Source of the DNA: Klebsiella pneumoniae
GTDB lineage: Bacteria > Pseudomonadota > Gammaproteobacteria > Eutrophobiales > Eutrophobiaceae
Length of the DNA stretch: 64,000 nt
Direction: 5' to 3'
Assembly (NCBI GenBank): GCA_945870865.1
Contig: CAMBTO010000001.1
Location: 79,487-143,486 of the forward strand
Shown here: positions 28,863 through 49,534 of the stretch, in pieces
Layout of the letters: each line of letters opens with the position of its first letter
Position numbering within the stretch: the first letter of the stretch is position 1
The notes under the pieces: model-generated
The model's input: the letters and a program-made list of their open reading frames with translations, nothing else
Told to the model about the DNA's origin: nothing
Databases searched by the model: none
Position numbers and translations under genes: made by a program

Positions 28863-29305
28863 ATTTTCTATCTTCTGTAGTAGTACTGTGAGATGGCATA
28901 TCATCAACACGCCTGACGACATGCATGCATATTAACCGCTGCAGGCCACAGGAAATATCGAATACGACCCTGACAGACCAATATTCACAATAAATCCACT
29001 ATTGCAGTTATTTATGTCACATAATATGCAGAATTAAATCGTAATGTACCCTGCGTGAAATTGCTGTGAAATTAGTGGCAGAGTAACAACGCGTTTATGA
29101 AACATACTAAATACTTTTTGACCCGACCCAGGCCTGACCACAGAAACCGGCATTAACTTCTATACTGGCCTGCACCAAAATAGATCCCCTGCCCTTAACG
29201 TATAACTTCCACGAGCGGATAGCACTGTTTCTGGGCAGCGTAGCCGTGCCTCTGCCCTGATTTATATACTGGCCACCACCTGCCGCTGATTTCCGTGCTG
29301 TTGTT

Positions 29306-29761
29306 TTGTTTCTCATGTCGAGGGTGCCGAACCGCTTTTTGTTATCAAAATTGAAGATTCTGAATGAATTCCGTCATATACAGCCCGGATGGAAACAAGT
29401 GTTGATAGCCATTGCCCTGAAAATGATCGGCCGGATCGGCACGTTTCTGGAATTGTTCCTGATACTCATCGTGCTTGATATCGATCCAGACTTTGTCGAT
29501 GTCGTGCTGGTCGAAGCGCTAGTTATGGTCAACGTCTGCCTGTTTTTCTTTATCCTACTGGAACTGGGTGTAAATGAGGCCGGCATCCTGGCCGATTTTT
29601 CCATCGCCGGACTTGCCGCAGCAAGTGGCATAGCGTTTGGTCTGCTGCGTCGAGCAAGAATGATTACCTATACGCTGACAGGCCTGTGCGTTTATGTGCT
29701 GGGTACGACTACCCGGTTTGGCAGCCAACCTTACCGTAATCAGGACCAGTCTTTACCCTGA
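29306..29761 (+). CDS. hypothetical small membrane protein (weak PsiE-like pattern)
   Basis: 151-aa ORF with hydrophobic segments and a faint resemblance to PsiE (ELVE.LVV..L.F..I.L). There is no strong RBS and it is uncertain. Confidence 0.3.
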   Translation: MFLMSRVPNRFLLSKLKILNEFRHIQPGWKQVLIAIALKMIGRIGTFLELFLILIVLDIDPDFVDVVLVEALVMVNVCLFFFILLELGVNEAGILADFSIAGLAAASGIAFGLLRRARMITYTLTGLCVYVLGTTTRFGSQPYRNQDQSLP

Positions 29762-29765
29762 AGGG

Positions 29766-30950
29766 TCAGCGGGACAGACCGACCAGCTCGGTAAATGCAC
29801 TGCACAGTCTCTCTATCTGTTCCGGTGTATGTGCTGCACTGAGGCTGCAACGTATCAACGGTCTCCCGTCCGGTGCGGCCGGAGGGAAGATCAGGTTCAC
29901 GTAAACCCCGCGTTCCATCAGCGCACTCCACAAGGTCACGGCCTGTGGTGGCGTATCCAGTTGGGCGGCTATTACCGGGCCGGCCACTGGCCCGACCCGA
30001 TATCCCTGTTCTTTCAAACAGGAATATAGCCGGTTTGCATTTATCCAGAGGCGTTCACGTAAATGGTTACCGTCACGCAGCAGTATCAATGCCGCCCGTG
30101 CAGAGGCAATATTCGATGGCGACGGGGATGCGGTAAAAATATAGGGCCGACTCAGATAACGCATCAAATCGAGTTGTTCATGGTTACTGACGCAATAGCC
30201 GCCGATACTGCCGAGACTCTTGCTGAATGTGCCGGTGATAAAGTCGACCTGATCGGTCACGCCGGTCTCTTCAACCAGACCCTGCCCGGTCCTGCCGAGC
30301 ACACCCAGTGAGTGCGCTTCATCTATCAGCATGTAACTTCCATGTGCCTTTGTGACATTGACCATTTCCGGCAACGGCGCCTTGTCACCGAGCATGCTGT
30401 AAATACCTTCAACAATGACCAGTGTTGACCGTGCTCGATCACCCAGACGGGCGAGCCTCTTGTCGAGGTCAGCGGCATCGTTGTGGCGGAACCGGATCAC
30501 TTCGGCGCCACTCAAACGACACCCGTCATAGATGCTGGCATGGCAGTGTGCATCTATCATTAATACATCACCCTGCCCTGCCAATCCGGAAATCGTGCCC
30601 AGGTTGCCCTGATACCCGGTTGAAAAGACCACGGCATGTTTGCAGTTGTAAAATTCTGCAAACTCCCGTTCCAGTGCGCGGTGGCCTTCATAATTTCCAT
30701 TGGCCATACGGGAGCCGGTCGTGCCGGTACCTTCTTCATCAATCGCCTTGTGTGCAGCAGCGATACATTCCGGCGCAAACGTCAGTCCGAGATAATTGTT
30801 CGTACCTGCCAGTAATACGCGTTTGCCAGCTATACTGGCCTCGGTTGCTGAATACATTTTTTCTATCGGTGTACCGAAGATCGATGGACGGATCTCAAGC
30901 AACGCCTTGCGGTCATCACCAAACACGGAAAATTTATCAAACAGATCCAT
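29766..30950 (-). CDS. spt: serine palmitoyltransferase-like alpha-oxoamine synthase (PLP-dependent)
   Basis: About 50% identity along its length to Sphingomonas SPT as I recall it (GTNNYLG, GSRM.NG, VVFSTGY.NLG, EVIRFRHND..DLDKRL, EGIYSMLGD.APL, IDEAHS.G, TFSKS PLP-lysine motif, RPYIFTAS, ERLW, GVYVN, IRCSLSAAHTPEQI). Confidence 0.85.
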   Translation of the reverse strand: MDLFDKFSVFGDDRKALLEIRPSIFGTPIEKMYSATEASIAGKRVLLAGTNNYLGLTFAPECIAAAHKAIDEEGTGTTGSRMANGNYEGHRALEREFAEFYNCKHAVVFSTGYQGNLGTISGLAGQGDVLMIDAHCHASIYDGCRLSGAEVIRFRHNDAADLDKRLARLGDRARSTLVIVEGIYSMLGDKAPLPEMVNVTKAHGSYMLIDEAHSLGVLGRTGQGLVEETGVTDQVDFITGTFSKSLGSIGGYCVSNHEQLDLMRYLSRPYIFTASPSPSNIASARAALILLRDGNHLRERLWINANRLYSCLKEQGYRVGPVAGPVIAAQLDTPPQAVTLWSALMERGVYVNLIFPPAAPDGRPLIRCSLSAAHTPEQIERLCSAFTELVGLSR

Positions 30951-31201
30951 TATTTTTCTGACTCTATACGTTCAATCATACGGGCAAGATCACTGACCAG
31001 TTGCACTTCGGCCATCAGGTTAAGTGGAATGGAGATATCAAACTCATCCTCGATTTCCATAATCAAATCCAGAATCTTCACTGAATCGAGCGCAAACTGA
31101 TCCACCAGATTTGTATCGGGTCGGATCTCGGCCCCTGACCCGGCAATGCGCTCGAGATGTTTGCTTATCCTTTGCAGTGTATTTTCATAATTGTCTGTCA
31201 T
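30950..31201 (-). CDS. dedicated acyl carrier protein
   Basis: 83 aa with the phosphopantetheine attachment context LDSV within a helical acidic protein. It is translationally coupled to the downstream SPT gene, sharing one nucleotide between stop and start. Confidence 0.8.
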   Translation of the reverse strand: MTDNYENTLQRISKHLERIAGSGAEIRPDTNLVDQFALDSVKILDLIMEIEDEFDISIPLNLMAEVQLVSDLARMIERIESEK

Positions 31202-31211
31202 ATCAATCCCG

Positions 31212-32138
31212 TCACTGTAGATTCAAAGGCAATACTGCCTCGTGTAACGCATCCTGTAATTGTCTCTTTGGCCGCCAGCCTGTCGCTCGCGTCAGCTTGT
31301 CTGAATCGCACACCCAGTCGGTATGCTGTAATTCACGTACCTTGCCTGGCGTCAACATCGGTGAATAACGGAACAAACGCGCCAGCGCAAGGTTCGCTCT
31401 GGCGACTGCGCTGATGATGCTGGCAGGGACAGGCAGACTGTGTACCGGTCGTGTCCAGACCTGACTTGCAATTTGTTTTACGGCGTCGTGATCATATCCC
31501 CCGGGCGTCCCATCATCAAGCTCATAGATTCCGGCAATCGGTTCGTCTGCATTCAACCAGGACAGAATTGCCTCGACCAGATCATTAACATACAGCAGGC
31601 CGAACCTTGAGGATTTCGCTCCGGTCAGTGGTAACAAGCCAAGGCGTGTCGCACGAAATATCGGTGCCATCTCGCGATCGCCTGGACCATAAACGGCAGT
31701 TGGTCGAAATATGGTCCACTGGTTCATTCCAGCGTGTCTTATCAGGTATTGTTCTGCCTGGAACTTGCTATCTGCGTACCATGACAGTTGTGGTTCGCGC
31801 GCTGCCAGCGAGGACATCAGCAGAAACCGTGCATGAGGAACCCTGCTTGATACCGAATCAAGCAGATTGGCGGTACCATCAAGATTGGTCTTCAGGAAGT
31901 CTGCTGATGAACTGCCACGGACGCGGCCGGCGCAGTGAATTACGTAATCTGTTTCAGCCACAAGTTGATACAGCGCATCTTTATCTTCAAGTGTGCCGGT
32001 AATCCAGTGCAGGTTTTTACTGTCGGCTTGTGGCTTTCGCGTTAGCGCACGGACTGCCCAGCCCGCGGAGGTCAATTTGTGTATCAGGTTTTTGCCGATG
32101 AAACCGGTGGCGCCGGTGACCGCCACGCGTCCTGACAT
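31212..32138 (-). CDS. NAD(P)-dependent epimerase/dehydratase-family reductase (candidate 3-ketosphinganine / ceramide reductase)
   Basis: Rossmann motif VAVTGATGFIGKNL and the extended-SDR catalytic Y..xK context (YADSK). Confidence 0.8.
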   Translation of the reverse strand: MSGRVAVTGATGFIGKNLIHKLTSAGWAVRALTRKPQADSKNLHWITGTLEDKDALYQLVAETDYVIHCAGRVRGSSSADFLKTNLDGTANLLDSVSSRVPHARFLLMSSLAAREPQLSWYADSKFQAEQYLIRHAGMNQWTIFRPTAVYGPGDREMAPIFRATRLGLLPLTGAKSSRFGLLYVNDLVEAILSWLNADEPIAGIYELDDGTPGGYDHDAVKQIASQVWTRPVHSLPVPASIISAVARANLALARLFRYSPMLTPGKVRELQHTDWVCDSDKLTRATGWRPKRQLQDALHEAVLPLNLQ

Positions 32139-32141
32139 GTA

Positions 32142-33899
32142 TCAGTAACGGGCGTCCGGCTGGGCTGATTGCTGGCTGCTGGGGAATCCGGTCCTTTTCA
32201 TGAAGCCCTGACATGCGGCTGCGCGTGACAGTTTTCCTGAAGAGGTGCGCGGAAGTGTATGTGGAGGCACTAGCTCAACCAGACAATGTACGCCGAATGC
32301 AGTGTATACCAGTCTCTGTAATCGGCTCATCAGGGCCTGACGTTCCTGAACAGCTGTCAGGCGGCATTCTATGACAAGCACAACAGTTGAAACATCGTTT
32401 GCATCAACAACAGCAAACGCCGAGGTCTCGCGCATCCTGATCTCCGGCTGTTGCTCCGCGATTTCTTCAATGTCCTGGGCGCGAATATTACGGCCATTGA
32501 TTATGATAATGTCCTTGTGACGACCGGTCAGATACAGATTGCCCTCAGATACAAAACCGAGATCACCGGTGTCCATCCAGTTGTCAGGCTTCATCACCCG
32601 GCTGGTTGTCTCCGGGTCATTGATATACCCGGACATGATACTGGGCCCTTTCAGCATGACGCGACCCACACGCAGATCCGGTAAAGCCTGGCCCTGACCA
32701 TCGACAATCGAAACAAAGTGACCCGGTAAGGGTCTGCCACAATTGACAAATTCGTTATGTTTTCTACCCTCTGCCTGTACACGCACAGCAACCCCACGTT
32801 CAGCCAGCGCCTCTGTATCTACCTTCATCACGTCCAGGCCTGTTCCCACCCTAGAGAAGGTCACTGCGAGAGAGGCTTCAGCAAGTCCGTAACATGGCAG
32901 GAAAGCCAACGGGTTGAATCCGACTGATTCAAATTTACTGGCGAAATTTTTCAGTACATCAGGCCGGATCATCTCGGCACCAATACCAGCAGCACGCCAG
33001 CTGCTCAGATCCAGACCTTCCAGATCCGCGCTACGCACCCTGAGGGCACACAGTTGCAGACCAAAAGGCGGACAAAATGCGATCGTGCAACGGTTACGAC
33101 TGATTAATCTGAGCCACTGGATCGGACGAACAGCGAAATCGCGGGTACGCAGGAAATCTACTGACAACTGCGAGACCAGTGGGGACAGGACCAGGCCAAT
33201 CAATCCCATATCATGGTAAAACGGCAACCAGGATGCACAGCGATCACTCGGGTATATGGCAAGCCCGTCACGGACGATACCTTGCAGGTTACTCATGATG
33301 GCCAATTCGGTGATGATGACGCCCTGCGGTGCGCGGGTACTACCGGAGGTAAACTGCAGATAGGCTATCTCGTCCCGCCGACTTTTCTGCATCGGCAGAT
33401 CCGATTCGGGAAGCTGCGCCAGCTGTCCCGGCGTACCGGTCCAGCGCACACTGCCTACCTCCCGGCTGGCCTCTTCAAGAAAAGATATAAAGTCCTTGTT
33501 TGCAATTGCCATGCTGGCATTGCTAATGTTGAGCATGGCACCTAACTGCCGAACATATATGTCGTGGCTACCCAGATTGACAGGTATAGGCATGGCAAAT
33601 GGAACCAGACCCGCATAGCGACAGGCAAAAAACAGGATAATAAACTCGGGGGATGTGTCTGCAATAATCGCGATAGTTTCTCCGCGTTTCAGGCCGAGAC
33701 CCAGCAAACGTCTTGCTGTAGAAATCGCGTCCTGGCGCAGTTGCTTGTAGGTAAGCACTTGCCTGAGCACGCCCCGTGCATCATAGAAGTTGTAGCCGGT
33801 CGACCCTGTTGCAGCATAGTCGAGCGCATCCGTCAGTGTCTCGAAGTCCGCCAGTCGCTGTGACAAAAGGTTCAGCGTTCCGGTTGGTTCAAGAACCAC
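32142..33899 (-). CDS. fatty acyl-AMP ligase / acyl-ACP synthetase (adenylate-forming enzyme)
   Basis: AMP-binding core motifs (FTSGSTRAPQGV, ...YGLAE..., TGD.G); 585 aa; first gene of a tight four-gene operon with 3-10 bp gaps. Confidence 0.85.
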   Translation of the reverse strand: MVLEPTGTLNLLSQRLADFETLTDALDYAATGSTGYNFYDARGVLRQVLTYKQLRQDAISTARRLLGLGLKRGETIAIIADTSPEFIILFFACRYAGLVPFAMPIPVNLGSHDIYVRQLGAMLNISNASMAIANKDFISFLEEASREVGSVRWTGTPGQLAQLPESDLPMQKSRRDEIAYLQFTSGSTRAPQGVIITELAIMSNLQGIVRDGLAIYPSDRCASWLPFYHDMGLIGLVLSPLVSQLSVDFLRTRDFAVRPIQWLRLISRNRCTIAFCPPFGLQLCALRVRSADLEGLDLSSWRAAGIGAEMIRPDVLKNFASKFESVGFNPLAFLPCYGLAEASLAVTFSRVGTGLDVMKVDTEALAERGVAVRVQAEGRKHNEFVNCGRPLPGHFVSIVDGQGQALPDLRVGRVMLKGPSIMSGYINDPETTSRVMKPDNWMDTGDLGFVSEGNLYLTGRHKDIIIINGRNIRAQDIEEIAEQQPEIRMRETSAFAVVDANDVSTVVLVIECRLTAVQERQALMSRLQRLVYTAFGVHCLVELVPPHTLPRTSSGKLSRAAACQGFMKRTGFPSSQQSAQPDARY

Positions 33900-34247
33900 A
33901 GATGTTTCGCTTAAAAGCTGACCACCTTCAGTATCTGCTGAAAGCGTCTCTAATTTACTTATTTCTGATATCAGAGTTAATACTCCTCATAGAAATGCGT
34001 TCTATCCCGCTGATAATATAAAGGATTTATATACAAATTTCCAGTATTTCTTCGTTTAGCCTCTCATCCACGCAACAAAGAGACATTTTGAGTACAACGC
34101 CATTTTTTCAAAAAGGCGGAGTTTAAAGTATTCTGCATATCTGATGCTAGTATTATTTAACAGCTAGATTACAACCCACGGCAATTTGCGGGCTACTGGC
34201 TACCACACCTGCTGATATCACCAACTGGCAATTGTCTTGTATCTAGC

Positions 34248-35492
34248 GTGTTATCCCCCCTGTTTTCGCGGGTTGATATGAATAATTATGTTACTCTTGA
34301 CGTCATTTTTCATCCTCTGGACTGCATCTTGAATATGGGTCTGACAGCTAGAAAACAAACAACCTCGACGTCAGTAGACGTCAGGCCAGTGCTGACGGGA
34401 AGAGACTGGCGGACTTTCATCAATTTACCCTGGTATATCTATCAGGACGACGCCAACTGGGTACCACCACTACGACTTGAACGTCGCCTGCATTTTTCGA
34501 GGATGAACCCATACTTCAGAAATGCTGAGTGGCAAGCCTGGATAGCCTACAAGGACAACAGGCCGGTCGGCAGGATCAGCGCCCAGGTTGATAGGGTTAA
34601 CCGTCAATATCATGGAGAACATACCGGTCATTTTGGTCTGCTAGAGGGCATTAATGACCCTGCCGTGTTCGCCGCCTTGACCCAAACCAGTGAAGAATGG
34701 CTGTCTCAGCGTCAGACTCACCATATTTCCGGCCCATTCAGCTTTTCCATTAACCAGGAGTGCGGGGTGCTGGTTGACGGTTTTGATACTCCGCCGGTCA
34801 TACTTATGCCCCACTCGCGCCAGTGGTACGGGCTGATGCTGGAACAACAGGGTTACACACCGGCAATGGACATGCTCGCCTACTGGATTGAAACCGGATT
34901 TGAAGCATCTCGCGTTATGAAAACACTGGTGGCAAGGTTTGACAAACGTATACATCTGCGTCATTTGCGCCGCAAACAGTACTCAGAGGAGATGGAAATC
35001 CTGCGTGATATTTTTAACGACGCCTGGTCAGGTAACTGGGGATTTATCCCGTTCAGCAAGGAGGAGTTTGCTGATCTTGGTAACAGTCTGCGATTTTTTA
35101 TTGCGGACGACTTTGTGCAGATAGCTGAACTCGATGGCAATCCGGTCGCGTTTGTCGTGGTACTGCCCAACCTTAACGAGATGCTCACCCGGCTGGACGG
35201 CAGCTTGTTTCCATTGGGATGGTACCGCTTGTACCGCGCGATGAGACAGAAAAGCTTCCGTACCGGCCGCGTACCGCTGATGGGAGTACGTAAACAGTAC
35301 CAGAACAGCTCGCTGGGGCTGACCCTGGCACTGATGGTCTGTAATGCTGCACGGGTCTGTGCACGGGCGACAGGAATTGAAGCGGTTGAAATGTCGTGGA
35401 TACTCGAAAACAACCGGGGCATGCGCAGCATACTCGATAATATTGGCAGCAAGGAGTACAAACGTTTCCGCATTTATGAAAAGTCTCTGTAA
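34248..35492 (+). CDS. GNAT-fold-like acyltransferase of unknown specificity; candidate bacterial ceramide synthase
   Basis: 414-aa ORF, divergently transcribed from the SPT operon. Its C-terminal half has acyl-CoA N-acyltransferase-like segments (FVVVLPNLNEM...RQKSFRTGRVPLMGV...). The assignment is by context, not by a recognised motif. Confidence 0.5.
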   Translation: MLSPLFSRVDMNNYVTLDVIFHPLDCILNMGLTARKQTTSTSVDVRPVLTGRDWRTFINLPWYIYQDDANWVPPLRLERRLHFSRMNPYFRNAEWQAWIAYKDNRPVGRISAQVDRVNRQYHGEHTGHFGLLEGINDPAVFAALTQTSEEWLSQRQTHHISGPFSFSINQECGVLVDGFDTPPVILMPHSRQWYGLMLEQQGYTPAMDMLAYWIETGFEASRVMKTLVARFDKRIHLRHLRRKQYSEEMEILRDIFNDAWSGNWGFIPFSKEEFADLGNSLRFFIADDFVQIAELDGNPVAFVVVLPNLNEMLTRLDGSLFPLGWYRLYRAMRQKSFRTGRVPLMGVRKQYQNSSLGLTLALMVCNAARVCARATGIEAVEMSWILENNRGMRSILDNIGSKEYKRFRIYEKSL

Positions 35493-35570
35493 CTCTACTG
35501 GCCCTGAGTTCGACAGGCTTGTGTCAGTCAACAATGATGTTCAAGTCTGTCACCTGGAAATCTGTCTGCC

Positions 35571-36653
35571 GTGAAAACACTGGGGCGATACATTAGTATA
35601 GAGATCTTCCGACCATTTGTGGTTATCAGCCTGATTCTTGCCGGATTGTTTTCCAGCTTTAATGCCGCGCGTTATCTTGAGACGGCCGTAACAGAATCAC
35701 TGGGAATGTCTCTGATCTTCAAACTGATAATGCTTAAAACCGTCATTGCCATGGAGGTACTGTTTCCGATCGCGTTCTACGCAGCCATTATCGTGGCACT
35801 TGGCCGTATGCATAGGGACCAGGAAATTATCGTAATGAAGTCGGCCGGTATAAATGAAACCTTCCTCATTAAAACTGTTATCACACTGGGTATACCAGTC
35901 GCAATCATGACAGGCATGTTGTCAATGTACGGCAGGCCATTGGCATACGACACTATCTACAGAATGGACAATAACGCCAGTAACGAGCTGGATGTGGATC
36001 GTTACCAGGCAGGACGGTTCTACGGTATCGAAAACAGTGGTCGTATCATCTATATCAACAGCAGAAACAACCGTGACCACATGCTTGAAGGCGTATTTCA
36101 CTACATCCGTCAGGACAACCGTAGTGATATTATCCTTGCCCGACAGGGCTACCAGGTCCGGAAAGGGCAATATCAACCACCGGAACTGCACCTGCTTGAT
36201 GGCAGCCTGTACCGTATCGTTCCTGGCGGCTCACGTGAATCAATAATCCATTTTTCCAGGTTTGTTTTCATTCCGGATGCAGACATAGCGATTGACTATC
36301 AGCGCAAGGCGGCACCAACACTGGACCTCGGGGACTCTGTCGACAGCCGCGACATTGCTGAATTCCAGTGGCGAATCTCCAGACCGTTCGCCACGATGTT
36401 ACTGGCGCTGGTAGCGATACCGCTAAGCCGAACCGCCCCGCGACAGGGCAAGGGAGAAAAGGCGGTCTCTGCTGCTGTAATTTTTGCCCTCTACTACAAC
36501 CTGAGTGGTCTGGCCCAGACCTGGGTCGAGCAGGGTACTGTTGGCAGCGTGCCCGGTGTATGGTGGCTGCATATGAGCATGCTTGTTTTTGTGATATGGG
36601 TACTTGCACCCGGATTTTCCAGAAAACCTGCCGGTGCACATGTACATACTTGA
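35571..36653 (+). CDS. lptF: LPS export ABC transporter permease LptF
   Basis: YjgP/YjgQ family with a GTG start; MKTLGRYISIEIFRPFVVISLILAGLF... and a periplasmic beta-jellyroll between TM3 and TM4. Confidence 0.85.
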   Translation: MKTLGRYISIEIFRPFVVISLILAGLFSSFNAARYLETAVTESLGMSLIFKLIMLKTVIAMEVLFPIAFYAAIIVALGRMHRDQEIIVMKSAGINETFLIKTVITLGIPVAIMTGMLSMYGRPLAYDTIYRMDNNASNELDVDRYQAGRFYGIENSGRIIYINSRNNRDHMLEGVFHYIRQDNRSDIILARQGYQVRKGQYQPPELHLLDGSLYRIVPGGSRESIIHFSRFVFIPDADIAIDYQRKAAPTLDLGDSVDSRDIAEFQWRISRPFATMLLALVAIPLSRTAPRQGKGEKAVSAAVIFALYYNLSGLAQTWVEQGTVGSVPGVWWLHMSMLVFVIWVLAPGFSRKPAGAHVHT

Positions 36654-37704
36654 TCGATATCTGATGAAGCAGGTTGCGCAAGGGATTGTTATCTCTACGC
36701 TGGTATTACTGCCCCTGTTCAGCTTTCTGGATCTGGTCGACCAGCTGGATGATGTGGGCACCGGCTTTTACCGCACCAGTGATGCATTCCTGTATGTTGT
36801 CATGACTCTGCCGCGCAGGTTTATCCAGCTGACCCCGTTTATTGCATTGCTTGGAAATGTGACGGCACTCGGCAGACTTGCGATTAACCATGAGCTGATC
36901 TCCCTGCGTTCAGCCGGATATTCTCCGGTACAGATCAGCATGGCATCTTTGAAGGTGGGACTCGTGCTGCTGGCGCTGATTTTTACACTTGAAATATATA
37001 TTGCGCCCCCGCTGCAACAAAAGGCCATTGCCCATCGTGCGGCGGCGATGGAACAAAGCGCCGAACTTGGAAAAAATCTGGGTATCTGGACCCGGAATGA
37101 CCGGCAGATCCTGCGCATAGGCAATTTGCAGCATGATACCAGACAGGCAAGTGTTGAAATTATCAATCTTGATGAACAGGGAAACATGTCTGAATATTTA
37201 CATGCTGAAGGTTTCGAGATCGCCAGCAATGAAGAATGGATATTGCACCAGGTAACGCGCAAGATATATACTGAGGACAACATCCGGTCGACCACGATGG
37301 ATCGATTGCCCTGGAATACCTTTCTGAATCCCGCCCAGATATCAACACTGACCAAACCACAGGAAAGCCTGTCTCCGGTCGAACTTTTCCGCTATGTCCA
37401 GCATTTACAGTCAACCGGGCAGGAAGTCGATGTATACCAGCTGTCGCTGTGGAAAAAACTGGGCGGACCACTAACGATGCTGGGGATGTTGTTGTTATCG
37501 GTACCGTTCGTGTTTGGTTCGGTTCGTACAGGTTTTGCGAACCGGCTGGTAATGGCGGGCGTTACCGGAATAACCGTCTATCTGCTCGACCAGATCTTTT
37601 CCAACACCGGGCTGATATTGAATCTGAATCCTTCGTTTATCGCGTTGACGCCTGGCATACTTTTGATCTGGATAGCACGGGTCTGGTTACGGCGTGTCCC
37701 CTGA
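36640..37704 (+). CDS. lptG: LPS export ABC transporter permease LptG
   Basis: MYILDRYLMKQVAQGIVISTLVLLPLFSFLDLVDQLDDVG: the canonical LptG N-terminus. It overlaps lptF by 14 bp. Confidence 0.85.
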   Translation: MYILDRYLMKQVAQGIVISTLVLLPLFSFLDLVDQLDDVGTGFYRTSDAFLYVVMTLPRRFIQLTPFIALLGNVTALGRLAINHELISLRSAGYSPVQISMASLKVGLVLLALIFTLEIYIAPPLQQKAIAHRAAAMEQSAELGKNLGIWTRNDRQILRIGNLQHDTRQASVEIINLDEQGNMSEYLHAEGFEIASNEEWILHQVTRKIYTEDNIRSTTMDRLPWNTFLNPAQISTLTKPQESLSPVELFRYVQHLQSTGQEVDVYQLSLWKKLGGPLTMLGMLLLSVPFVFGSVRTGFANRLVMAGVTGITVYLLDQIFSNTGLILNLNPSFIALTPGILLIWIARVWLRRVP

Positions 37705-37736
37705 TTATTTTCATGTCTGAATAACTGAACCCTTTT

Positions 37737-38720
37737 ATGTACATATCAGCTGCTGACAAGTTATACCCACAAAATACGGCCATTTTACTGAACCCGCATG
37801 GCGGCAGGATACGCAAACGCCTGGGTCGCATACGCGAGCTCGCAGCGGCAATACCCGGTGCAATCGTGTGCGAAACAGACAATCTCGCAGACATGAACAG
37901 GACCCTTGATGAGCTGGCAGAACGCGGCGTGGGTCATCTGGTGATCGCCGGTGGTGATGGAACGGTGCAGGCCGTGCTGAACCGCCTGTTCACCGGCAAA
38001 CTCTGGTCCCGCCTGCCACTGGTCAGTATAGTCCCTGGTGGAACAACGAATATGACAGCATCTGATCTTGGTACATCCAGCAACCCTGAAAAGTGTCTGC
38101 AACAACTGGGCAGATGCCTGCAGAACGCAATGGATGTCAGGCTGGTAACGCGATCTGTTTTGAAAATCCGGCAGAATCAACAGCCGGATATTCATGGCAT
38201 GTTTTTCGGTGCCGGTTTGATAGCGCACGGTTCTGCATATTTTCACAAGCATATAAAAAAGTCCGGGCTAACCGGTGAGTCCGGTTCTGCTTTTGTGATG
38301 CTGCGTATGCTGTCAGGACTGCTGACTGGCCGCAATGCAGACGAGCGTGCCCAAATCCGGATCCAGATAACGGATGACACCGGTCACACCAGGGTATGCA
38401 ACTCTATGTTGCTGTTTACCAGCACGCTGGATCGCTTGCTGCTCGGGCTACGTCCGTATTGGGGTGGTGGTAATGGAGCTATCCATACTACCTGCCTGCG
38501 CGAGCATCCTCTCCGGTTGTGGCGATCGTTACTGACCATCGTTTGTGGTCGTGGCAACTCCCTGGACGAAAATAACGGTTATTACAGCAGAAATAACAGT
38601 GCAATTGAGCTGCTTATGGACGCCAGCTTTATTGTTGATGGTGAGTTTTTTGTTTGCGAAAGCAGGCATGGTCCGCTCAGGATTAGCCAGGCTGGCCCGG
38701 TCCGCTTTTTACTCCCCTGA
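37737..38720 (+). CDS. diacylglycerol-kinase-catalytic-domain lipid kinase (YegS / sphingosine-ceramide-kinase-like)
   Basis: DAGK_cat signature HLVIAGGDGTVQAVLNRL and a preceding NP.GG motif (LLNPHGGR). Confidence 0.8.
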   Translation: MYISAADKLYPQNTAILLNPHGGRIRKRLGRIRELAAAIPGAIVCETDNLADMNRTLDELAERGVGHLVIAGGDGTVQAVLNRLFTGKLWSRLPLVSIVPGGTTNMTASDLGTSSNPEKCLQQLGRCLQNAMDVRLVTRSVLKIRQNQQPDIHGMFFGAGLIAHGSAYFHKHIKKSGLTGESGSAFVMLRMLSGLLTGRNADERAQIRIQITDDTGHTRVCNSMLLFTSTLDRLLLGLRPYWGGGNGAIHTTCLREHPLRLWRSLLTIVCGRGNSLDENNGYYSRNNSAIELLMDASFIVDGEFFVCESRHGPLRISQAGPVRFLLP

Positions 38721-38746
38721 AATCCTCATGAGTATCATTCCGTAAC

Positions 38747-39706
38747 ATGCCCACTACTGACACCCGGTTACCACTAGGACTGATTAACGCGATTGCCCTC
38801 CAGTGTGAGCGTCCAGCAGGCATTGAAGCCGCGCTGCTTGCAAACAACATCCGGCAACGATTTGGGGATTCACTGCTTGCCGTCATTCTCTATGGTTCCT
38901 GCCTGCGTACGCATCTTTATACCGAGGGTGTGGTTGATTTATATGTGGTCGTTAACAGTTATCAGCAGGCCTACAGCGGTCATACGCTGCGTTATTTGAA
39001 TGCGGCCTTACCTCCGAATGTTTTTTATATCGAGATTAACAACAATGAAACTATCATCCGCGCAAAATACGCTGTCATTTCAGCACGTGACCTGGAGCGG
39101 GGCTGTGGCCAATGGTTCCACTCCTATATCTGGTCACGCTTTGCCCAGCCCGTCGTCCTGTTGTATGTACGCGATCCACTGACGCGTGAGCATATTTATA
39201 AAAATCTGGCCTGCGCGGTATTGACCTTACTCAGCACCACGCTACCTGCGCTCGGACCAGGCAAGGTGGACCATGCTGCAATCTGGCAGAACGGATTGGC
39301 CCTGACCTATGCAGCGGAATTGCGCCCTGAACGCCACACAAGGGCACGTGATATCACAGCGCAAAATCTGGATGACTTTGGCATCCTGATCAGAAAGGCG
39401 GCACCAGCGCTTGTTACACTGATGTTTACTGATGAAGACGACCTTTATGAAAGGCTTAGCGGGCAGACCGAAAGATCGCGGGCGACCAGATTATGGCGGA
39501 TTCGACGCTGGCAAGGATTTTTACTTTCAGTATTACGCTTGTCAAAAGCGGCCTATACCTTTCGTGACTGCGTGGATTATGCCGCCTGGAAGATCGAACG
39601 TCATACGGGTATACGCATCCACGTGACCCCGACCCTGCAACGACACCCTATCCTGTTCGGCTTTAGTGTATTATGGCAACTGATTAAAAGGGACGTACTA
39701 CACTAG
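38747..39706 (+). CDS. Tam41/Mmp37-like CTP-dependent nucleotidyltransferase (phosphatidate cytidylyltransferase-like)
   Basis: NTase-fold G-S...D.Y.VV (ILYGSCLR...DLYVVV), followed by a block VFYIEINNNETIIRAKYAVISARDLERGC..WFHSYIWSRFAQPVVLL. This block parallels the yeast Tam41 region VYFNPF..I....VKYGVVS..LL.D...W..LYLAGRLQKPVKIL as I recall it. Confidence 0.6.
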   Translation: MPTTDTRLPLGLINAIALQCERPAGIEAALLANNIRQRFGDSLLAVILYGSCLRTHLYTEGVVDLYVVVNSYQQAYSGHTLRYLNAALPPNVFYIEINNNETIIRAKYAVISARDLERGCGQWFHSYIWSRFAQPVVLLYVRDPLTREHIYKNLACAVLTLLSTTLPALGPGKVDHAAIWQNGLALTYAAELRPERHTRARDITAQNLDDFGILIRKAAPALVTLMFTDEDDLYERLSGQTERSRATRLWRIRRWQGFLLSVLRLSKAAYTFRDCVDYAAWKIERHTGIRIHVTPTLQRHPILFGFSVLWQLIKRDVLH

Positions 39707-39746
39707 ATCCCGGCGCTTAGTTGAACACAGGAAACGCGAGCAGACC

Positions 39747-40517
39747 ATGTCGGAAACAGAGTTGAAACAATCAGACCTAACACAGCCCCCGCGTCGTAGA
39801 CGCAACCGACCCAGTGTGGCCATCGGCAAGTGGGTACTCCAGCATATCGAACGTGCGTTGATCCGTTATTCCATTGTCGCTGACGTTCCAATATTTGATG
39901 CGCACCAGTTTGCCTGGACAGCCCCGCTGGAAGCAGACTGGAAAAAAGTACGCCAGGAACTTGATATGATCCTGAAAAGCCAGGTCAAACTGCCAAACTT
40001 TCAGGACATTTCAAAAGACCAGACCAACATTACCCAGGATGACCGCTGGAAAACCTTTTTCCTGTACGGCTATGGCTACAAGATGCCGAGCAATTGCGAT
40101 CTGTGTCCGGAGACAACCCGTATTATCGAGTCTGTCCCCGGCATGTTGACCGGTTTTTTTTCGGTACTGGCGCCGGGCAAACACATACCTCCACATCGCG
40201 GGCCCTATAAAGGTCTGTTACGCTGCCATCTTGCCTTGCAGGTACCGGAGCCAGCGGATCAGTGCTGGATTAAGGTAGGTGATATGTCTGCCAACTGGCA
40301 AGAAGGGCACTGTCTAGTATTTGATGATACCTATGTACATCAGGTCCAGAATAATACGGAGGGTACTCGTGTTGTTCTGTTTCTGGATATAATCCGGCCT
40401 ATGCGTTTCCCCGGGTCCTTACTGAACAGGATCGTTATCTGTTTGATACGTATGTCTCCGTTTATACAGGACGCGATCCGCAACCAGCGAGCCTGGGAAT
40501 ACAGGATTGGTACCTGA
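39747..40517 (+). CDS. aspartyl/asparaginyl beta-hydroxylase-family Fe(II)/2-OG dioxygenase (LpxO/OlsC-like lipid acyl-chain 2-hydroxylase candidate)
   Basis: ...LAPGKHIPPHRGPYKGLLRCHLALQVP...CWIKVGD....W.EG.CLVFDD.Y.H.V.N....RVVLFLDI: the conserved AspH-family core. Confidence 0.8.
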   Translation: MSETELKQSDLTQPPRRRRNRPSVAIGKWVLQHIERALIRYSIVADVPIFDAHQFAWTAPLEADWKKVRQELDMILKSQVKLPNFQDISKDQTNITQDDRWKTFFLYGYGYKMPSNCDLCPETTRIIESVPGMLTGFFSVLAPGKHIPPHRGPYKGLLRCHLALQVPEPADQCWIKVGDMSANWQEGHCLVFDDTYVHQVQNNTEGTRVVLFLDIIRPMRFPGSLLNRIVICLIRMSPFIQDAIRNQRAWEYRIGT

Positions 40518-42933: not shown

Positions 42934-43602
42934 CTAACTTCTTGTGGCAAGCAGGCTGTCAAGCTGTATAAGCCGCTCCGGTGTCCCGATGTCGAACCAT
43001 CTACCCTTGAAATATTGACCGCTGACTTGCTGGTTCAACATCGCCTGTTTTAATAACGGAACCAGTGAAAAGAGCTGGGGATCGGTCCCGGAAAAAATCT
43101 GAGGGTCATAAACCCCTATGCCACTATAGGTCTGTAAGGTCTGCCCGGTTGTCGATAACAGGCCGTCCGTCAAGGCAAAATCACCGCCAGAGTTATGCGG
43201 TGGGTTATCCACCATAATCAGATGGGCCAGTCCTCCCGGGTAGGCAGGCAGGCTGCGGTAATCAAACTCGGTCCAAATATCACCGTTGACCAGAATAAAC
43301 GGCGCGTCCCCCAGCAGTGGCAAGGCCTTGCGGATACCCCCACCGGTTCCCAATGGCTCATCGCCTTCGTGGGAATAGTGGATATGGACCCCGAAACTGT
43401 CACCCTCGCGAAACCAGGCCTGTATCATCTCACCCAGCCTGCCGGTGTTTATTACAATCTTATCTACCGAGGCAGCCACAAGCGACTCTATATGATACTG
43501 CAATAAGGGTTTACCGCCGACCTGCAACAGGGGTTTGGGCGTATGCAAACTCAACGGCATCATCCGCGCTCCCTTGCCTGCAGCCAGTATCATCGCTTGC
43601 AT
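42934..43602 (-). CDS. murU: N-acetylmuramate alpha-1-phosphate uridylyltransferase-like nucleotidyltransferase
   Basis: MQAMILAAGKGARMMPLSLHTPKPLL.VGGKPLLQYHIESL...HYSHEGDEPLGTGGGIRKALPLLGDAPFILVNGDIWTEFD: near-colinear with Pseudomonas MurU as I recall it; 222 aa. Confidence 0.75.
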   Translation of the reverse strand: MQAMILAAGKGARMMPLSLHTPKPLLQVGGKPLLQYHIESLVAASVDKIVINTGRLGEMIQAWFREGDSFGVHIHYSHEGDEPLGTGGGIRKALPLLGDAPFILVNGDIWTEFDYRSLPAYPGGLAHLIMVDNPPHNSGGDFALTDGLLSTTGQTLQTYSGIGVYDPQIFSGTDPQLFSLVPLLKQAMLNQQVSGQYFKGRWFDIGTPERLIQLDSLLATRS

Positions 43603-43790
43603 GGGGTGTTATTCCTGTGAGCCAATGGCAACATTGACTGAATTATTCTGTTTAAGGTATACATTTCAGATTGGGTGACCTTCCAGTATTGATTTATGGC
43701 ATCATTACAGTAATAACATCAACCGAACCGTCGAATCAGACGACCCGTCAGGCAGCATAATTATGAAAGACAGCACAGGCAACAATAGAT

Positions 43791-44765
43791 ATGGGTGACA
43801 GGGAAAAACTGCGACAACTTGGCCGGGCTGTTATCGAGACCGAGGCAAACGCTGTTGCCGACCTGCTCGGGCGCATAGATGATAACTTTGTGGATGCGTG
43901 CAAATTGATACTGGCAAGCAAGGGCAGGACCGTTGTCATAGGCATGGGTAAATCGGGCCACATTGCGAGCAAGATTGCCGCCACACTGGCCAGCACCGGC
44001 ACGCCGGCGTTTTTTGTACATCCAGGTGAGGCCAGCCACGGCGATCTCGGCATGATTACCCCGGACGATGTTGTCATCATGCTATCCAATTCCGGTGAAA
44101 CTGACGAAATAATAACCCTGTTGCCGGTAATTAAACGATTGGGAATCCCGTTGATTGCCCTGACCGGCAATCCGGAGTCCACGCTGGCCAAAATTGCCAC
44201 CACACATATCGACGTCAGCGTGACCAGAGAGGCCTGTCCGCTCGGGCTGGCACCGACCGCCAGCACCACTGCCGCTCTGGTGATGGGTGATGCAATTGCG
44301 GTGGCATTGCTGGAGGCCAAGGGTTTCAGCAAGGAAGATTTTGCCCTGTCACATCCGGGAGGCATCCTTGGAAGAAAACTGCTGCTTCGCGTCAATGATA
44401 TAATGCATACCGGCAGCCGTATACCGAAGGTCTCACAACATACGCTTCTGCGTGATGCACTGATGGAAATGACACGCAAGGGATTCGGCACCACCGCTAT
44501 CATTGATGACAACGATAGAGTGGCTGGCATATTCACCGACGGCGATGTCAGGCGGATGCTTGATATCGGCATTGACTTGCATGCCAACAACATCGGCAAT
44601 TTCATGACTGCCGGATGCAAAACTATTCAGGCAACTGCACTGGCCGCAGAGGCCGTTAAAATGATGGAAGATTACAAAATCAATGTATTACTGGTCGTGG
44701 ATCATGATAACAAGCTCGCCGGCATCCTCAATATGCATGATCTACTGAGGGCGCGTGTTGTTTGA
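43791..44765 (+). CDS. kdsD: arabinose-5-phosphate isomerase (SIS plus tandem CBS)
   Basis: SIS motif GMGKSGHIASKIAATLASTGTPAFFVHPGEASHGDLGMI and C-terminal CBS pair. Confidence 0.9.
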   Translation: MGDREKLRQLGRAVIETEANAVADLLGRIDDNFVDACKLILASKGRTVVIGMGKSGHIASKIAATLASTGTPAFFVHPGEASHGDLGMITPDDVVIMLSNSGETDEIITLLPVIKRLGIPLIALTGNPESTLAKIATTHIDVSVTREACPLGLAPTASTTAALVMGDAIAVALLEAKGFSKEDFALSHPGGILGRKLLLRVNDIMHTGSRIPKVSQHTLLRDALMEMTRKGFGTTAIIDDNDRVAGIFTDGDVRRMLDIGIDLHANNIGNFMTAGCKTIQATALAAEAVKMMEDYKINVLLVVDHDNKLAGILNMHDLLRARVV

Positions 44766-45291
44766 TCTGCCCACAGTTCTGAAAAAAGCCGCTTTGATAC
44801 GGCTCGCCGTATTTGATGTTGATGGCGTATTGACCAGTGGTGACATTATCTATACCAGCAATAATCTGGAACAGAAAGTGTTCCATGTCCATGACGGGCT
44901 GGGACTGAAAATGCTGATGCGCAGTGGCTGTGAGGTTGCCATTATCACTTCGCGTAACTCTGCGATAGTGTCAACAAGAATGGCTGAACTGGGTATTGTC
45001 CACGTGCTGCAAGGCCAGGAGGATAAGCGCACAGCCATGATGTCGCTGATGCAAGCGCTGGGAGTCGACCCGGCCGGGGCGGCCTATACCGGGGATGATC
45101 TGATTGATCTCCCGGCCATGAAACTGTGCGGCCTGTCCTTCGCCGTTGCCAATGCACATCCTCTGGTAAAGTCGAACACGGACTGGACGACAGAAAAGCC
45201 GGGGGGTTCGGGCGCAGTCCGGGAAATATGCGAACTGTTACTCAAGGCACAGGGCAAACTGGACGCCATCTATGCTGAATACCTGCGCTAG
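44755..45291 (+). CDS. kdsC: 3-deoxy-D-manno-octulosonate 8-phosphate phosphatase
   Basis: HAD motif I FDVDGVLTSG and a conserved KdsC core (DGLG.K.L...G). Confidence 0.88.
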   Translation: MLFDLPTVLKKAALIRLAVFDVDGVLTSGDIIYTSNNLEQKVFHVHDGLGLKMLMRSGCEVAIITSRNSAIVSTRMAELGIVHVLQGQEDKRTAMMSLMQALGVDPAGAAYTGDDLIDLPAMKLCGLSFAVANAHPLVKSNTDWTTEKPGGSGAVREICELLLKAQGKLDAIYAEYLR

Positions 45292-45315
45292 AACAAAACC
45301 CTTCCGGAGATAATC

Positions 45316-45885
45316 TTGTCACGACGCCTGATCCTGTTCCTGATTCTTGCCGTCGCCGCGGTTGGCAGCGGCTGGCTGATGAAAAGGATTAGCGGGACTG
45401 AACCTGTCCCCTCCGTAAGTGACCGGATTGATCCGGATTATTATATGGAAGATTTTACAACAATCTCCATGGATGAAAATGGCCTGCCAGCAAGCAAACT
45501 ATACGCGGTATATATGGAACATAACCCGGCGGATGACACGCTGGAGTTGTATGAGCCGAACCTGGAAGTCTACCGGGGAGAATCAGACCCGCTGAGGATT
45601 ACAGCCGACACGGGCTGGGTGACAAATAATAACGAGGTGATCCTGTTACGCGGCAAGGTACGTATGTGGATCGAAGATGCGGCCGGCCAGGTAACATTGA
45701 ATGTAGATACGACCGAAGTACGGGTATTGTTGCTTGAAGAATATGCAGAGACGGACCAGAATGCGACTATTGTTGCCAAACGAACCACAGTTAAAGGACG
45801 GGGAATCCGGGCACATTTCGATGATAACCGACTGGAAATACTGGATCATGAACAGACTACAATTGCGCCGCCTAATCGGATTTAA
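45316..45885 (+). CDS. lptC: LPS export protein LptC
   Basis: N-terminal TM anchor and a periplasmic beta-jellyroll; sits between kdsC and lptA. Confidence 0.8.
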   Translation: MSRRLILFLILAVAAVGSGWLMKRISGTEPVPSVSDRIDPDYYMEDFTTISMDENGLPASKLYAVYMEHNPADDTLELYEPNLEVYRGESDPLRITADTGWVTNNNEVILLRGKVRMWIEDAAGQVTLNVDTTEVRVLLLEEYAETDQNATIVAKRTTVKGRGIRAHFDDNRLEILDHEQTTIAPPNRI

Positions 45886-46402
45886 CCTTGGCCTGCTAAT
45901 GTGCGTCAGTTCAGCCATGCTGTACGCCTTGTCGGCCGACAAAAATAAGGACATCGAAATTGAATCGAACTCTGCCTATCTCGATGATACAAAAAACGTC
46001 AGCGTCTATACAGGTAACGTAGTTGTCATCCAGGGCAGCATGCGGATCACCGGCGACAAGATGACAATTCTCTATAATGAAAACAATGAGTTGGACAAGA
46101 TTATTATGGAGGGTCAGCCCGCAACATTCAGGCAGATGCCAGATAACAGCATGGTCTACGATGAGGCCGAGGCACTGGTAATGGAATATTATGAAAGTAG
46201 GAGCCTGATCGTTCTGACGGACAAGGCCCGAGTTAAACAGGGTGACCGTCGACTGATAGCCGACCATGTGGAATACGATACCAACCTGAGCCAGGTCCGT
46301 GCCAACAGTAATGAAGCCACTACCAAAACCGATCCGGCGACGGACGCCCGGGTCAAACTGATTATCCCGGCAAGAAAAACAGGCACGGCCACCGGCAACT
46401 GA
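45848..46402 (+). CDS. lptA: LPS transport periplasmic protein LptA
   Basis: Signal peptide MNRLQLRRLIGFNLGLLMCVSSAMLYALSA and an OstA-like N-terminal domain (IESNSAYLDD...VYTGNVVVIQGSMRITGDKM). This start is chosen within the longer ORF-track call and overlaps the lptC 3' end. Confidence 0.8.
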   Translation: MNRLQLRRLIGFNLGLLMCVSSAMLYALSADKNKDIEIESNSAYLDDTKNVSVYTGNVVVIQGSMRITGDKMTILYNENNELDKIIMEGQPATFRQMPDNSMVYDEAEALVMEYYESRSLIVLTDKARVKQGDRRLIADHVEYDTNLSQVRANSNEATTKTDPATDARVKLIIPARKTGTATGN

Positions 46403-46446
46403 ACTTCCCTTTTATCGCTCACTGAAATACGACTGCTACTAAGATT

Positions 46447-47172
46447 ATGGGAATACTGTCCGCCAGAAACCTGTCCAAGAAATATCGTCGGCGCGAGGTA
46501 GTTCGTGATGTCAGCCTGACTGTAAACGAAGGCGAGATCGTCGGCCTGCTTGGTCCAAACGGTGCGGGGAAAACCACCAGTTTCCACATGCTGGTCGGAC
46601 TGATACCCTGTGACACCGGCAATATATTGCTCAACGAGCAGGATATAAGTCATTTGCCGATGGATAAACGTGCCCGGCTGGGCGTTGGTTACCTGCCCCA
46701 GGAATCTTCGATCTTCCGTAAACTGTCGGTGGAAGACAATATCATGGCCATTCTTGAAACACGTCCGGATATCAGCACGGAAGACGCCAAGGCCCAGCTT
46801 GAAGAGTTATTGCAGGAGTTTCACATCGTGCACCTGCGGGGTAGCCTCGGCATGAGTTTGTCCGGCGGGGAGCGCAGGCGCGTTGAAATCGCGCGTGCAC
46901 TTGCAGTTAACCCCAAATTCCTGCTGCTGGACGAGCCGTTTGCCGGAATCGACCCGATATCAATCGCCGATATCCAGCGTATCGTCAAATATCTGAGTGA
47001 GCGTGGCCTGGGCATCCTGATTACCGACCATAATGTCCGCGAAACACTGGGATCATGTGATCGGGCCTATATTGTCAATGATGGACGCATAATCGCGGAA
47101 GGGACGCCCGAACAGATTCTCGCCAATGAACACGTCAGGAATATTTACCTCGGCAACCAGTTCAGAATGTAG
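46447..47172 (+). CDS. lptB: LPS export ABC transporter ATPase LptB
   Basis: Walker [10 protein letters not shown], signature [15 protein letters not shown] and Walker [13 protein letters not shown]. Confidence 0.93.
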
Positions 47173-47226
47173 ATATTTTTACAGTAAATGACAAATATTG
47201 CGCGGTTTTTGCATTAAACTAATCTT

Positions 47227-48696: not shown

Positions 48697-48720
48697 CCCA
48701 ACTTTAAAACGGAGACTAAA

Positions 48721-49047: not shown

Positions 49048-49082
49048 ACGAATCCATCATTCCCTTTTAACAAGGCATATTC

Positions 49083-49529: not shown

Positions 49530-49534
49530 TATGT

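Follow-up and report, generated by a model that had tools for sequence, protein, structure and literature searches.

The window, by which we mean the whole 64-kb stretch of DNA that was analysed (contig CAMBTO010000001.1 of assembly GCA_945870865.1), contains genes for an LptF/LptG pair, members of the family of permeases that extract lipopolysaccharide (LPS), placed among genes for putative sphingolipid enzymes. Six co-oriented open reading frames (ORFs) were confirmed on the + strand at 34248-40517. They run from an acyltransferase to a dioxygenase and matched the families proposed in an earlier annotation by a model from the letters alone, hereafter the sequence-only reading. As that reading had also noted, the six-gene set is divergent from the serine palmitoyltransferase operon: aasR-cerR-acp-spt lie on the - strand, where the genes for an acyl carrier protein (ACP), a fatty acyl-AMP ligase (FAAL) and an NAD(P) reductase are contiguous with spt (29766-33899). 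The features are collected in Table 1, in which all coordinates are positions in the window and families were assigned with Pfam and NCBIfam models.

Table 1. Features of the two divergent gene sets and of the Lpt genes downstream of them.
Feature	Position	Strand	Family matches and other basis
spt, serine palmitoyltransferase; end of divergent operon	29766..30950	-	NF047599 600.3 bits (cut-off 500); Aminotran_1_2 182 bits
Dedicated acyl carrier protein, AcpR-like	30950..31201	-	PP-binding 39 bits
CerR-like NAD(P)-dependent reductase	31212..32138	-	Epimerase family 98 bits
AasR-like fatty acyl-AMP ligase / acyl-ACP synthetase	32142..33899	-	NF006624 826 bits (cut-off 600); AMP-binding 180 bits
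Putative divergent control region between the operons	33900..34277	.	Two near-invariant blocks; weak promoter-like sites
bCerS-like N-acyltransferase, candidate bacterial ceramide synthase	34278..35492	+	Weak GNAT match (Acetyltransf_1, 21 bits)
LptF, sphingolipid-locus (LptF2) lineage	35571..36653	+	LptF_LptG 220 bits; TIGR04407 319 bits (cut-off 230)
LptG, sphingolipid-locus (LptG2) lineage	36640..37704 (ORF from 36604)	+	LptF_LptG 212 bits; TIGR04408 308 bits (cut-off 240)
CpgB-like lipid (ceramide) kinase	37737..38720	+	DAGK_cat 67 bits
CpgC-like Tam41/Mmp37-type nucleotidyltransferase-fold protein	38747..39706	+	Tam41_Mmp37 23.5 bits (gathering score 24)
Fe(II)/2-oxoglutarate dioxygenase, AspH/LpxO/OlsC family; candidate sphingolipid acyl hydroxylase	39747..40517	+	Asp_Arg_Hydrox (PF05118) 181 bits
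Canonical lptC-lptA-lptB; probable shared ATPase and periplasmic bridge, presumed partner outside the operon	45316..47172	+	TIGR04409 LptC 126 bits; TIGR03002 LptA 127 bits; TIGR04406 LptB 392 bits

The spt gene shares 65% DNA identity with E. coli genes annotated as spt. The ACP gene occupies the same slot between reductase and spt as CC_1163, Neut_0460 and the corresponding gene of the E. coli locus, and the CerR-like gene has the position of CC_1164/Neut_0459 and of the E. coli gene annotated "NAD(P)-dependent oxidoreductase". At the head of the + strand set, the sequence-only reading had used a GTG at 34248; an independent gene caller starts the bCerS-like protein at 34278 (404 aa). No NCBIfam model matched this protein, which is 46% identical over 373 aa to YghO, encoded by the first gene of the E. 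coli spt locus. Window LptF peptides were used to scan one genome for each species, which gave 34 loci. Comparison of their flanks by tblastn with the window proteins showed bCerS-like homologues (38-62% identical) next to lptFG in all 34, at the position held by Neut_1100, which is published as orthologous to CC_1154 (PMC11324152).

LptF and LptG are a full-length pair of the LptF_LptG family, adjacent and co-oriented, with positions 1-351 of 353 of the Pfam model covered. The permeases of the canonical LptB2FGC transporter have the same family and full-length architecture, and lptF overlaps lptG in E. coli as well; the window pair lies in a sphingolipid context, whereas canonical LptFG lies in a pepA-holC context. 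Window LptF scored 141 bits (32% identity) against E. coli LptF2 but 56 bits (24%) against the canonical E. coli LptF, and window LptG scored 199 bits against E. coli LptG2 versus 133 bits against the canonical LptG. Identities of the window pair to canonical E. coli LptF/G were 24-28%. Window LptF scored 57-111 bits against all canonical LptF chains in the PDB (Pseudomonas aeruginosa, Vibrio cholerae, Acinetobacter baylyi and enterics), and more than 150 representatives of 50%-identity clusters scored at least 156 bits.

The homologue search with window LptF gave close relatives only, and hence no canonical references. Neighbour-joining (NJ) distance trees were made first with 200 bootstraps and then with 300 after two members from pepA contexts had been added. 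In the first series, 13 sphingolipid-locus LptFs excluded four canonical LptFs in 173 replicates (range of support 173-191/200). With the additions, the same 13 formed one split in 231/300 replicates (77%), and the canonical pepA-linked LptGs split off in 284/300 (95%). The two non-enteric members that fell outside the sphingolipid clade lie in the canonical context valS/holC-pepA<>lptF-lptG. From the E. coli scores, the PDB scores, the bootstraps and the canonical context of these outgroup members, we conclude with moderate support that window LptF and LptG belong to the LptF2/LptG2 lineage, distinct from the pepA-linked canonical pair. Thus, what the sequence-only reading had called essential LPS extraction permeases is placed by similarity and phylogeny in the sphingolipid-locus type.

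The genomic surroundings of the relatives agree with this placement. Most of the 34 loci contain cpgB/cpgC, and spt, ACP, cerR and aasR were present wherever the flank was long enough. Two further loci on megabase contigs, L037 and L038, are likewise sphingolipid loci. Every retrieved relative of window LptF stood in a sphingolipid locus, which bears out the proposed tie of lptFG to an anionic sphingolipid of the Caulobacter type. The sequence-only reading had taken the same flanking genes in relatives as a sign of routine core context; the flanks of the lptFG relatives proved always to be sphingolipid genes, so that the functional link is strengthened, not refuted.

Three close loci, from metagenome-assembled genomes (MAGs) of uncultured Gammaproteobacteria, have LptF identities of 91% (L001, CAMDWI010000003.1), 72% (L002) and 64% (L003). 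They share the whole layout of the window: a membrane-fusion gene of a resistance-nodulation-division (RND) system, spt, bCerS, LptF, LptG, CpgB, CpgC, MltF, MurU, kdsD, kdsC, lptC and lptA. The nearest relatives of L001 in the analysis were unclassified gammaproteobacterial MAGs and Nitrosomonadaceae. The loci of Nitrosospira and Nitrosomonas have 48-52% LptF identity and 48-62% identity to the window proteins. They carry an additional MobA/CofC-like nucleotidyltransferase gene between bCerS and LptF and, in many, a CDP-OH_P_transf gene between LptG and CpgB, an order that matches the one published for N. eutropha. Searched by megablast, 5,426 E. coli genomes gave no match to the six genes; the E. 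coli locus was reached only by a distant search with spt.

Two kinds of observation among the related loci stand apart from this comparison. On a 4.7-kb JGI metagenome contig (Ga0049084_10006962), the products of the CpgC, hydroxylase, MltF and MurU genes were 100% identical to those of the window by tblastn, and the same organism was therefore sampled in another dataset. Among the sphingolipid loci of Pseudomonadales/Haliea MAGs, one (L030:12193-13938) has a full MsbA-like ATP-binding cassette (ABC) exporter gene (ABC_membrane and ABC_tran, 581 aa) directly after lptG, and three others (L032-L034) have ABC-ATPase matches at the same position. This exporter is a candidate for a dedicated flippase; the flippase candidate of Caulobacter, CC_1166, is a different one.

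The arrangement of the six genes is compact, with intergenic gaps of 78, 32, 26 and 40 bp. The 14-bp overlap of lptF and lptG described by the sequence-only reading holds when lptG begins with the ATG at 36640, a start that is used by an independent gene caller on an ENA contig with the identical protein and that fits the N-terminus of the LptG model. A consensus scan found no strong internal promoter or terminator, of the kind that could isolate lptFG. Neither the promoter-like sites (18, vs 16.7+/-4.9 in shuffled sequence) nor the terminator-like sites (19, vs 12.8+/-4.2) exceeded the shuffled level, and these counts are uninformative. All + strand terminator-like sites in the six-gene span lie inside coding sequence and none in the gaps. 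A single transcript for the six genes is plausible from the spacing.

The DNA between the two gene sets (33900-34277) has overlapping weak -10/-35-like sites on both strands and would be regulatory. Two blocks in this region, ~33952-34050 and 34110-34165, are almost invariant across the window, L001 and L002, despite the L002 proteins being only 55-92% identical. The first block includes an inverted repeat, TCTGA-NN-TCAGA (~33963-33975), together with overlapping -10-like boxes, and probably serves as an operator or promoter. The idea of a riboswitch or leader RNA between the divergent operons was rejected, as there was no Rfam match and folding was no better than that of shuffles (z = +0.4).

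Olea-Ozuna et al. described a 17-gene region of Caulobacter, CC_1152-CC_1168, in which CC_1154 is bCerS, CC_1155 and CC_1156 are second versions of LptG and LptF, CC_1160 is the ceramide kinase CpgB and CC_1161 the Tam41-like CpgC; CC_1159 is the CDP-alcohol phosphatidyltransferase CpgA, CC_1153 is CofC-like, and CC_1152 is a nucleotidyltransferase later named CpgD (PMC11324152). Orthologous clusters were tabulated for H. neptunium, S. wittichii, Z. mobilis, N. eutropha, A. vinelandii and P. luteola, and the order bCerS...LptF2-LptG2...CpgB-CpgC, divergent from spt, was published (PMC11324152). N. eutropha Neut_1100-1106 encodes bCerS, a CofC-like protein, LptF2, LptG2, CpgA, CpgB and CpgC, and A. 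vinelandii has the same type of gene set divergent from spt (PMC11324152). Similar loci exist in S. wittichii and E. coli UTI89 (bioRxiv 10.64898/2026.04.12.717747). The view of the sequence-only reading that the arrangement was not described does not stand: it was already in print for C. crescentus as well as H. neptunium, S. wittichii, N. eutropha, A. vinelandii and P. luteola (PMC11324152), the function of LptF2/G2 was tested by experiment in Caulobacter, and the locus was drawn for E. coli UTI89 (bioRxiv 10.64898/2026.04.12.717747).

Compared with Caulobacter (CC_1152-CC_1168 / CCNA_01210-01226), the window has the same families of ceramide-synthesis enzymes, an LptF/LptG pair within the locus, CpgB beside a Tam41-like CpgC and, likewise, no LptB in the locus. 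The gene order differs, and the window lacks LptC2, the flippase candidate CC_1166, CpgA, CpgD, the CofC-like CC_1153, the HIT protein and the phosphoesterase. It has a dioxygenase of the AspH/LpxO/OlsC family, whereas Caulobacter has a DesA-family hydroxylase encoded elsewhere. The clusters of A. vinelandii (Avin_44240-44370), P. luteola and N. eutropha have nearly the same architecture as the window, except for two genes that are missing from it, a CofC-like one that separates bCerS from LptF2 and the CpgA gene that separates LptG2 from CpgB. CpgD, likewise absent from the window, is present in A. vinelandii and P. luteola. The E. coli FG92-1 locus (yghO-FAAL-reductase-ACP-spt-lptG-lptF) shares with the window a second LptF/LptG pair beside spt, but its lptG-lptF is convergent with spt, it lacks cpgB, cpgC and the hydroxylase, and the window has none of its other accessory genes (YtfJ-family, YghQ/R/S/T). 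The hydroxylase of the window was not reported in any of the published clusters. An Lpt-type exporter in a sphingolipid locus is therefore already known in kind, and the window is a further case, in which the head-group set is reduced and a hydroxylase is an apparently unreported partner.

How such a pair works has been investigated in Caulobacter, where lptF2, lptG2 and lptC2 can be deleted only without spt or cpgB, where LptF2 co-purifies with LptG2, and both with the single LptB, and where LptF2/G2 are essential only when ceramide diphosphoglycerate (CPG2) is made (bioRxiv 10.64898/2026.04.12.717747). In the window, lptB is encoded ~6 kb from lptF/lptG, in a canonical cluster, kdsD-kdsC-lptC-lptA-lptB-rpoN-ptsN-hprK-rapZ (43791-51392, + strand), that begins 3.3 kb past the six-gene set with mltF and murU in between. 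The scores of LptC, LptA and LptB all exceed the NCBIfam cut-offs. The kdsDC-lptCAB neighbourhood was also found in L001-L003, L041 and L049, and its position 3.3 kb downstream of a sphingolipid cluster seems to be unreported. With its listed start at 45734, the lptA ORF would share ~150 bp with lptC, and its true start is probably later.

These neighbours bear on a different reading of the pair, in which it would be the sole LptF/LptG of the organism and one LptB2FG machine would extract LPS as well as a ceramide phosphoglycerate that is anionic and hydroxylated, a Sphingomonas-like arrangement extended to an LPS producer. The neighbouring genes for 3-deoxy-D-manno-octulosonic acid (Kdo) and Lpt proteins show LPS production, both permeases pass the NCBIfam LptF and LptG equivalog cut-offs, and no other LptF/G-like gene occurs within the 64-kb window. 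S. wittichii was reported with the sphingolipid-locus pair only, and a single Lpt system for both lipids was left open for some taxa (bioRxiv 10.64898/2026.04.12.717747). The same preprint reported that Caulobacter has the canonical pair as well, and the E. coli FG92-1 genome carries the sphingolipid-locus lptG-lptF together with a canonical pepA-linked lptF-lptG. The window proteins are far from gammaproteobacterial pepA-linked LptFG, and 64 kb is too short for a pepA-lptFG locus to be expected in it. Pseudomonads, too, carry a sphingolipid-locus LptFG together with a canonical pair, which counts against a sole pair. We regard one machine for both lipids as improbable, and a sphingolipid-dedicated LptF2/LptG2 pair remains the preferred reading.

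The head-group genes next to lptFG are few. The CpgB-like kinase carries GGDG at residues 72-75 and has neither a CxxxCxxC motif nor a hydrophobic segment, in keeping with the published description of CpgB as a soluble protein with GGDG and without CxxxCxxC. It shares 36-45% identity with the products encoded at the Neut_1105 position of the Nitrosomonas/Nitrosospira loci. The CpgC-like protein is 48-53% identical to the products at the Neut_1106 position, and a profile of 14 homologues matched the Tam41 structure 6ig2 (E = 1e-5). The cpgC gene directly follows cpgB in the window, an adjacency that is conserved in the related loci. In a tblastn search with the Nitrosospira genes, no homologue of the CofC-like gene or of CpgA (CDP-OH_P_transf) was found in the 64-kb window. 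No cpgD was found there either; the sole nearby nucleotidyltransferase gene (42934-43602, - strand) was rejected as CpgD because its product passes the MurU equivalog (273 bits, cut-off 250).

In the published pathway model, CpgB makes ceramide-1-phosphate, CpgC converts it to ceramide phosphoglycerate (CPG) by an unknown mechanism, and CpgD with CpgA leads to CPG2 (PMC12275187). By this logic CPG requires no genes beyond cpgB and cpgC, and CPG2 depends on the others as well; since the window has only cpgB and cpgC, its gene set predicts CPG and not CPG2. The final lipid might still be a different one, either because cpgA, cpgD and the CofC-like gene lie elsewhere in the genome and CPG2 is made, or because CpgC feeds another head group. 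The genes could indeed lie elsewhere, as some do in N. eutropha, where the orthologues of CC_1152 and CC_1157 are outside the main cluster, and the genes of S. wittichii and Z. mobilis are scattered (PMC11324152); the mechanism of CpgC, as said, leaves room for the second variant. On the other hand, the three close relatives of the same layout also lack cpgA, cpgD and CofC-like genes in 21 kb, whereas most other related loci keep a CofC-like gene, often with cpgA, inside the operon. We therefore hold a product other than CPG to be possible but rather unlikely. As a separate observation, genes of the CofD (2-phospho-L-lactate transferase) family and CofE-like F420_ligase genes adjoin the hydroxylase gene in L037 (8806-10795) and L038 (8878-10671), where a CofC-like gene is present as well. 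Such a CofC/CofD/CofE-like set beside phosphoglycerate-lipid genes suggests chemistry shared with F420 side-chain synthesis.

The last gene of the set, encoding the dioxygenase, is the only one of the window operon for which the published loci have no equivalent. Its Pfam family includes OlsC (ornithine lipid acyl 2-hydroxylase) and LpxO (lipid A 2-hydroxylase), and like them the window protein, for which an AspH-like fold is predicted, would act on acyl chains of outer-membrane lipids. It differs from them in its genomic partner, cpgBC, and in its scores of 260.7 bits for the NCBIfam OlsC model (cut-off 450) and 144 bits for LpxO (cut-off 500), which miss both cut-offs. No hydrophobic segment was predicted in the protein. 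Residues H150, H161, H198, D193 and R208 are invariant in 36 homologues, and the AlphaFold (AF2) model, with a pLDDT of 83, gave a Foldseek match to the oxygenase domain of human AspH (E = 1e-15).

We scanned metagenomes with an alignment of the dioxygenase family and obtained 80 loci, in which the presence of cpgB/cpgC followed the identity to the window protein. At identities of at least 60%, 22 of the 24 informative loci, which come from several lineages, had cpgB/cpgC immediately upstream in the same orientation; the fraction was 7/18 at 55-60% identity and 0/12 below 55%. L037 and L038 encode 64-65% identical dioxygenases that likewise have cpgB/cpgC immediately upstream, in the order CofC-like, CpgD-like, LptF, LptG, metallophosphoesterase, CDP-OH_P_transf, Tam41 and then hydroxylase. 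The dioxygenase subfamily is thus a regular member of cpgBC clusters. Full-text searches of a limited library returned no paper with an LpxO/OlsC-type hydroxylase in bacterial sphingolipid loci, and the pairing of the dioxygenase with cpgBC seems to be unreported.

It could be argued that the enzyme does not belong to the sphingolipid pathway at all and is an LpxO-like lipid A or OlsC-like ornithine-lipid hydroxylase that happens to stand last in the cluster. Among curated models it does match OlsC (261 bits) and LpxO best, JGI calls some of the homologues "ornithine lipid ester-linked acyl 2-hydroxylase", and members of the family below ~55% identity never stand beside cpgBC. L003, a relative of the same layout, has no dioxygenase. 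The wide miss of both curated cut-offs and the position directly after cpgB/cpgC in nearly all informative loci of at least 60% identity speak for a different substrate, and the larger ORFs of the window, scanned against Pfam, included no ornithine-lipid or lipid A modification genes. Hydroxylation of one of these other lipids thus appears unlikely; most likely, by family, synteny and analogy to OlsC and LpxO, the dioxygenase hydroxylates the acyl chain of ceramide or of CPG. In four further loci (L100-L102 and L109), hydroxylases of ~53-55% identity are encoded with a FAAL-like gene on either side and a gene for an Spt-like alpha-oxoamine synthase (34-35% identity) nearby, which looks like a different, uncharacterised amino-lipid cluster.

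Taken together, we consider it likely that the locus encodes a pathway from ceramide via ceramide-1-phosphate to CPG, with hydroxylation as an added step and with LptF2G2 as a dedicated extractor working with LptB. The identities and order of the genes, the lineage of LptF/G and the conservation of the layout are observed directly, and the enzymatic and transport steps are modelled on published work on the homologues. The locus would be a sphingolipid locus of the "Rhodobacteria-type" with two divergent operons, in which aasR-cerR-acpR-spt together with bcerS would make dihydroceramide. AasR would load a fatty acid onto the dedicated ACP, Spt would condense the ACP-bound fatty acid with serine, bCerS would N-acylate the product of Spt, and CerR would reduce the 3-keto group. 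CpgB would then phosphorylate the ceramide to ceramide-1-phosphate, CpgC would convert this to CPG, and the terminal dioxygenase, whose substrate is proposed from its family and synteny, may add a hydroxyl group to the acyl chain of the lipid. LptF2-LptG2 would be the membrane part of an ABC extractor that borrows LptB, the ATPase of LPS transport, and would pass the anionic sphingolipid to the Lpt bridge and on to the outer membrane. In Caulobacter, anionic sphingolipid that is stuck in the inner membrane is lethal (bioRxiv 10.64898/2026.04.12.717747), and such toxicity would explain why the exporter genes are co-operonic with the head-group genes.

Several points weigh against this pathway-and-exporter model. 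The operon status is drawn from the gaps only. Both permeases exceed the ordinary LptF/LptG equivalog cut-offs, as mentioned above, and the NCBIfam models do not separate the two lineages; the trees are NJ distance trees of moderate support in which canonical LptF is paraphyletic (82/300). The Tam41 assignment is weak for the single sequence, falling just under the gathering score. Orthology to CpgB, CpgC, bCerS and LptF2/G2 follows a chain from the window through the syntenic Nitrosomonas/Nitrosospira and E. coli loci to the published orthology tables.

The locus sits in ordinary core chromosome. Upstream are aspS, nadA, ruvCAB, ybgC-tolQRAB-pal-cpoB, queE/queC and genes for an AcrB-type pump with its fusion protein, and downstream are mltF, murU and the kdsDC-lptCAB cluster described above. 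The G+C content shows a slight dip only (0.48 over bCerS/LptF vs 0.50-0.55). A - strand ORF at 43748-44620 was dismissed as spurious, since kdsD occupies the + strand there. The genes for the AcrB-type RND pump (1036 aa; ACR_tran match of 848 bits) and for the membrane-fusion protein (24673-28922, - strand) come directly after the spt operon on its downstream side, and the fusion protein is kept at this flank in L001 and L002. In Myxococcus, an MmpL transporter gene adjoins spt (bioRxiv 10.64898/2026.04.12.717747), and by analogy a link of the RND pump to lipid export is conceivable. A 151-aa ORF at 29306-29761 on the + strand matches only the C-terminal half (177-299 of 302) of the LPG_synthase_TM model (PF03706), which describes the flippase-like domain of MprF. 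A full-length homologue of 319 aa, convergent with spt, is present in L003 (L003:3252-4211), and L001 and L002 have none; the window ORF looks like the remnant of a gene for a possible lipid flippase.

The locus mainly widens the known distribution of the sphingolipid-wired Lpt exporter, to uncultured Gammaproteobacteria. Its dioxygenase subfamily provides a testable candidate for a phosphosphingolipid hydroxylase in lineages without the DesA-type enzyme of Caulobacter, and the stripped-down head-group set of cpgB and cpgC alone offers a natural minimal system for the CpgC reaction. With kdsDC-lptCAB as its neighbour, the sphingolipid cluster lends itself well to the question of whether LPS and the sphingolipid share LptB and the bridge.

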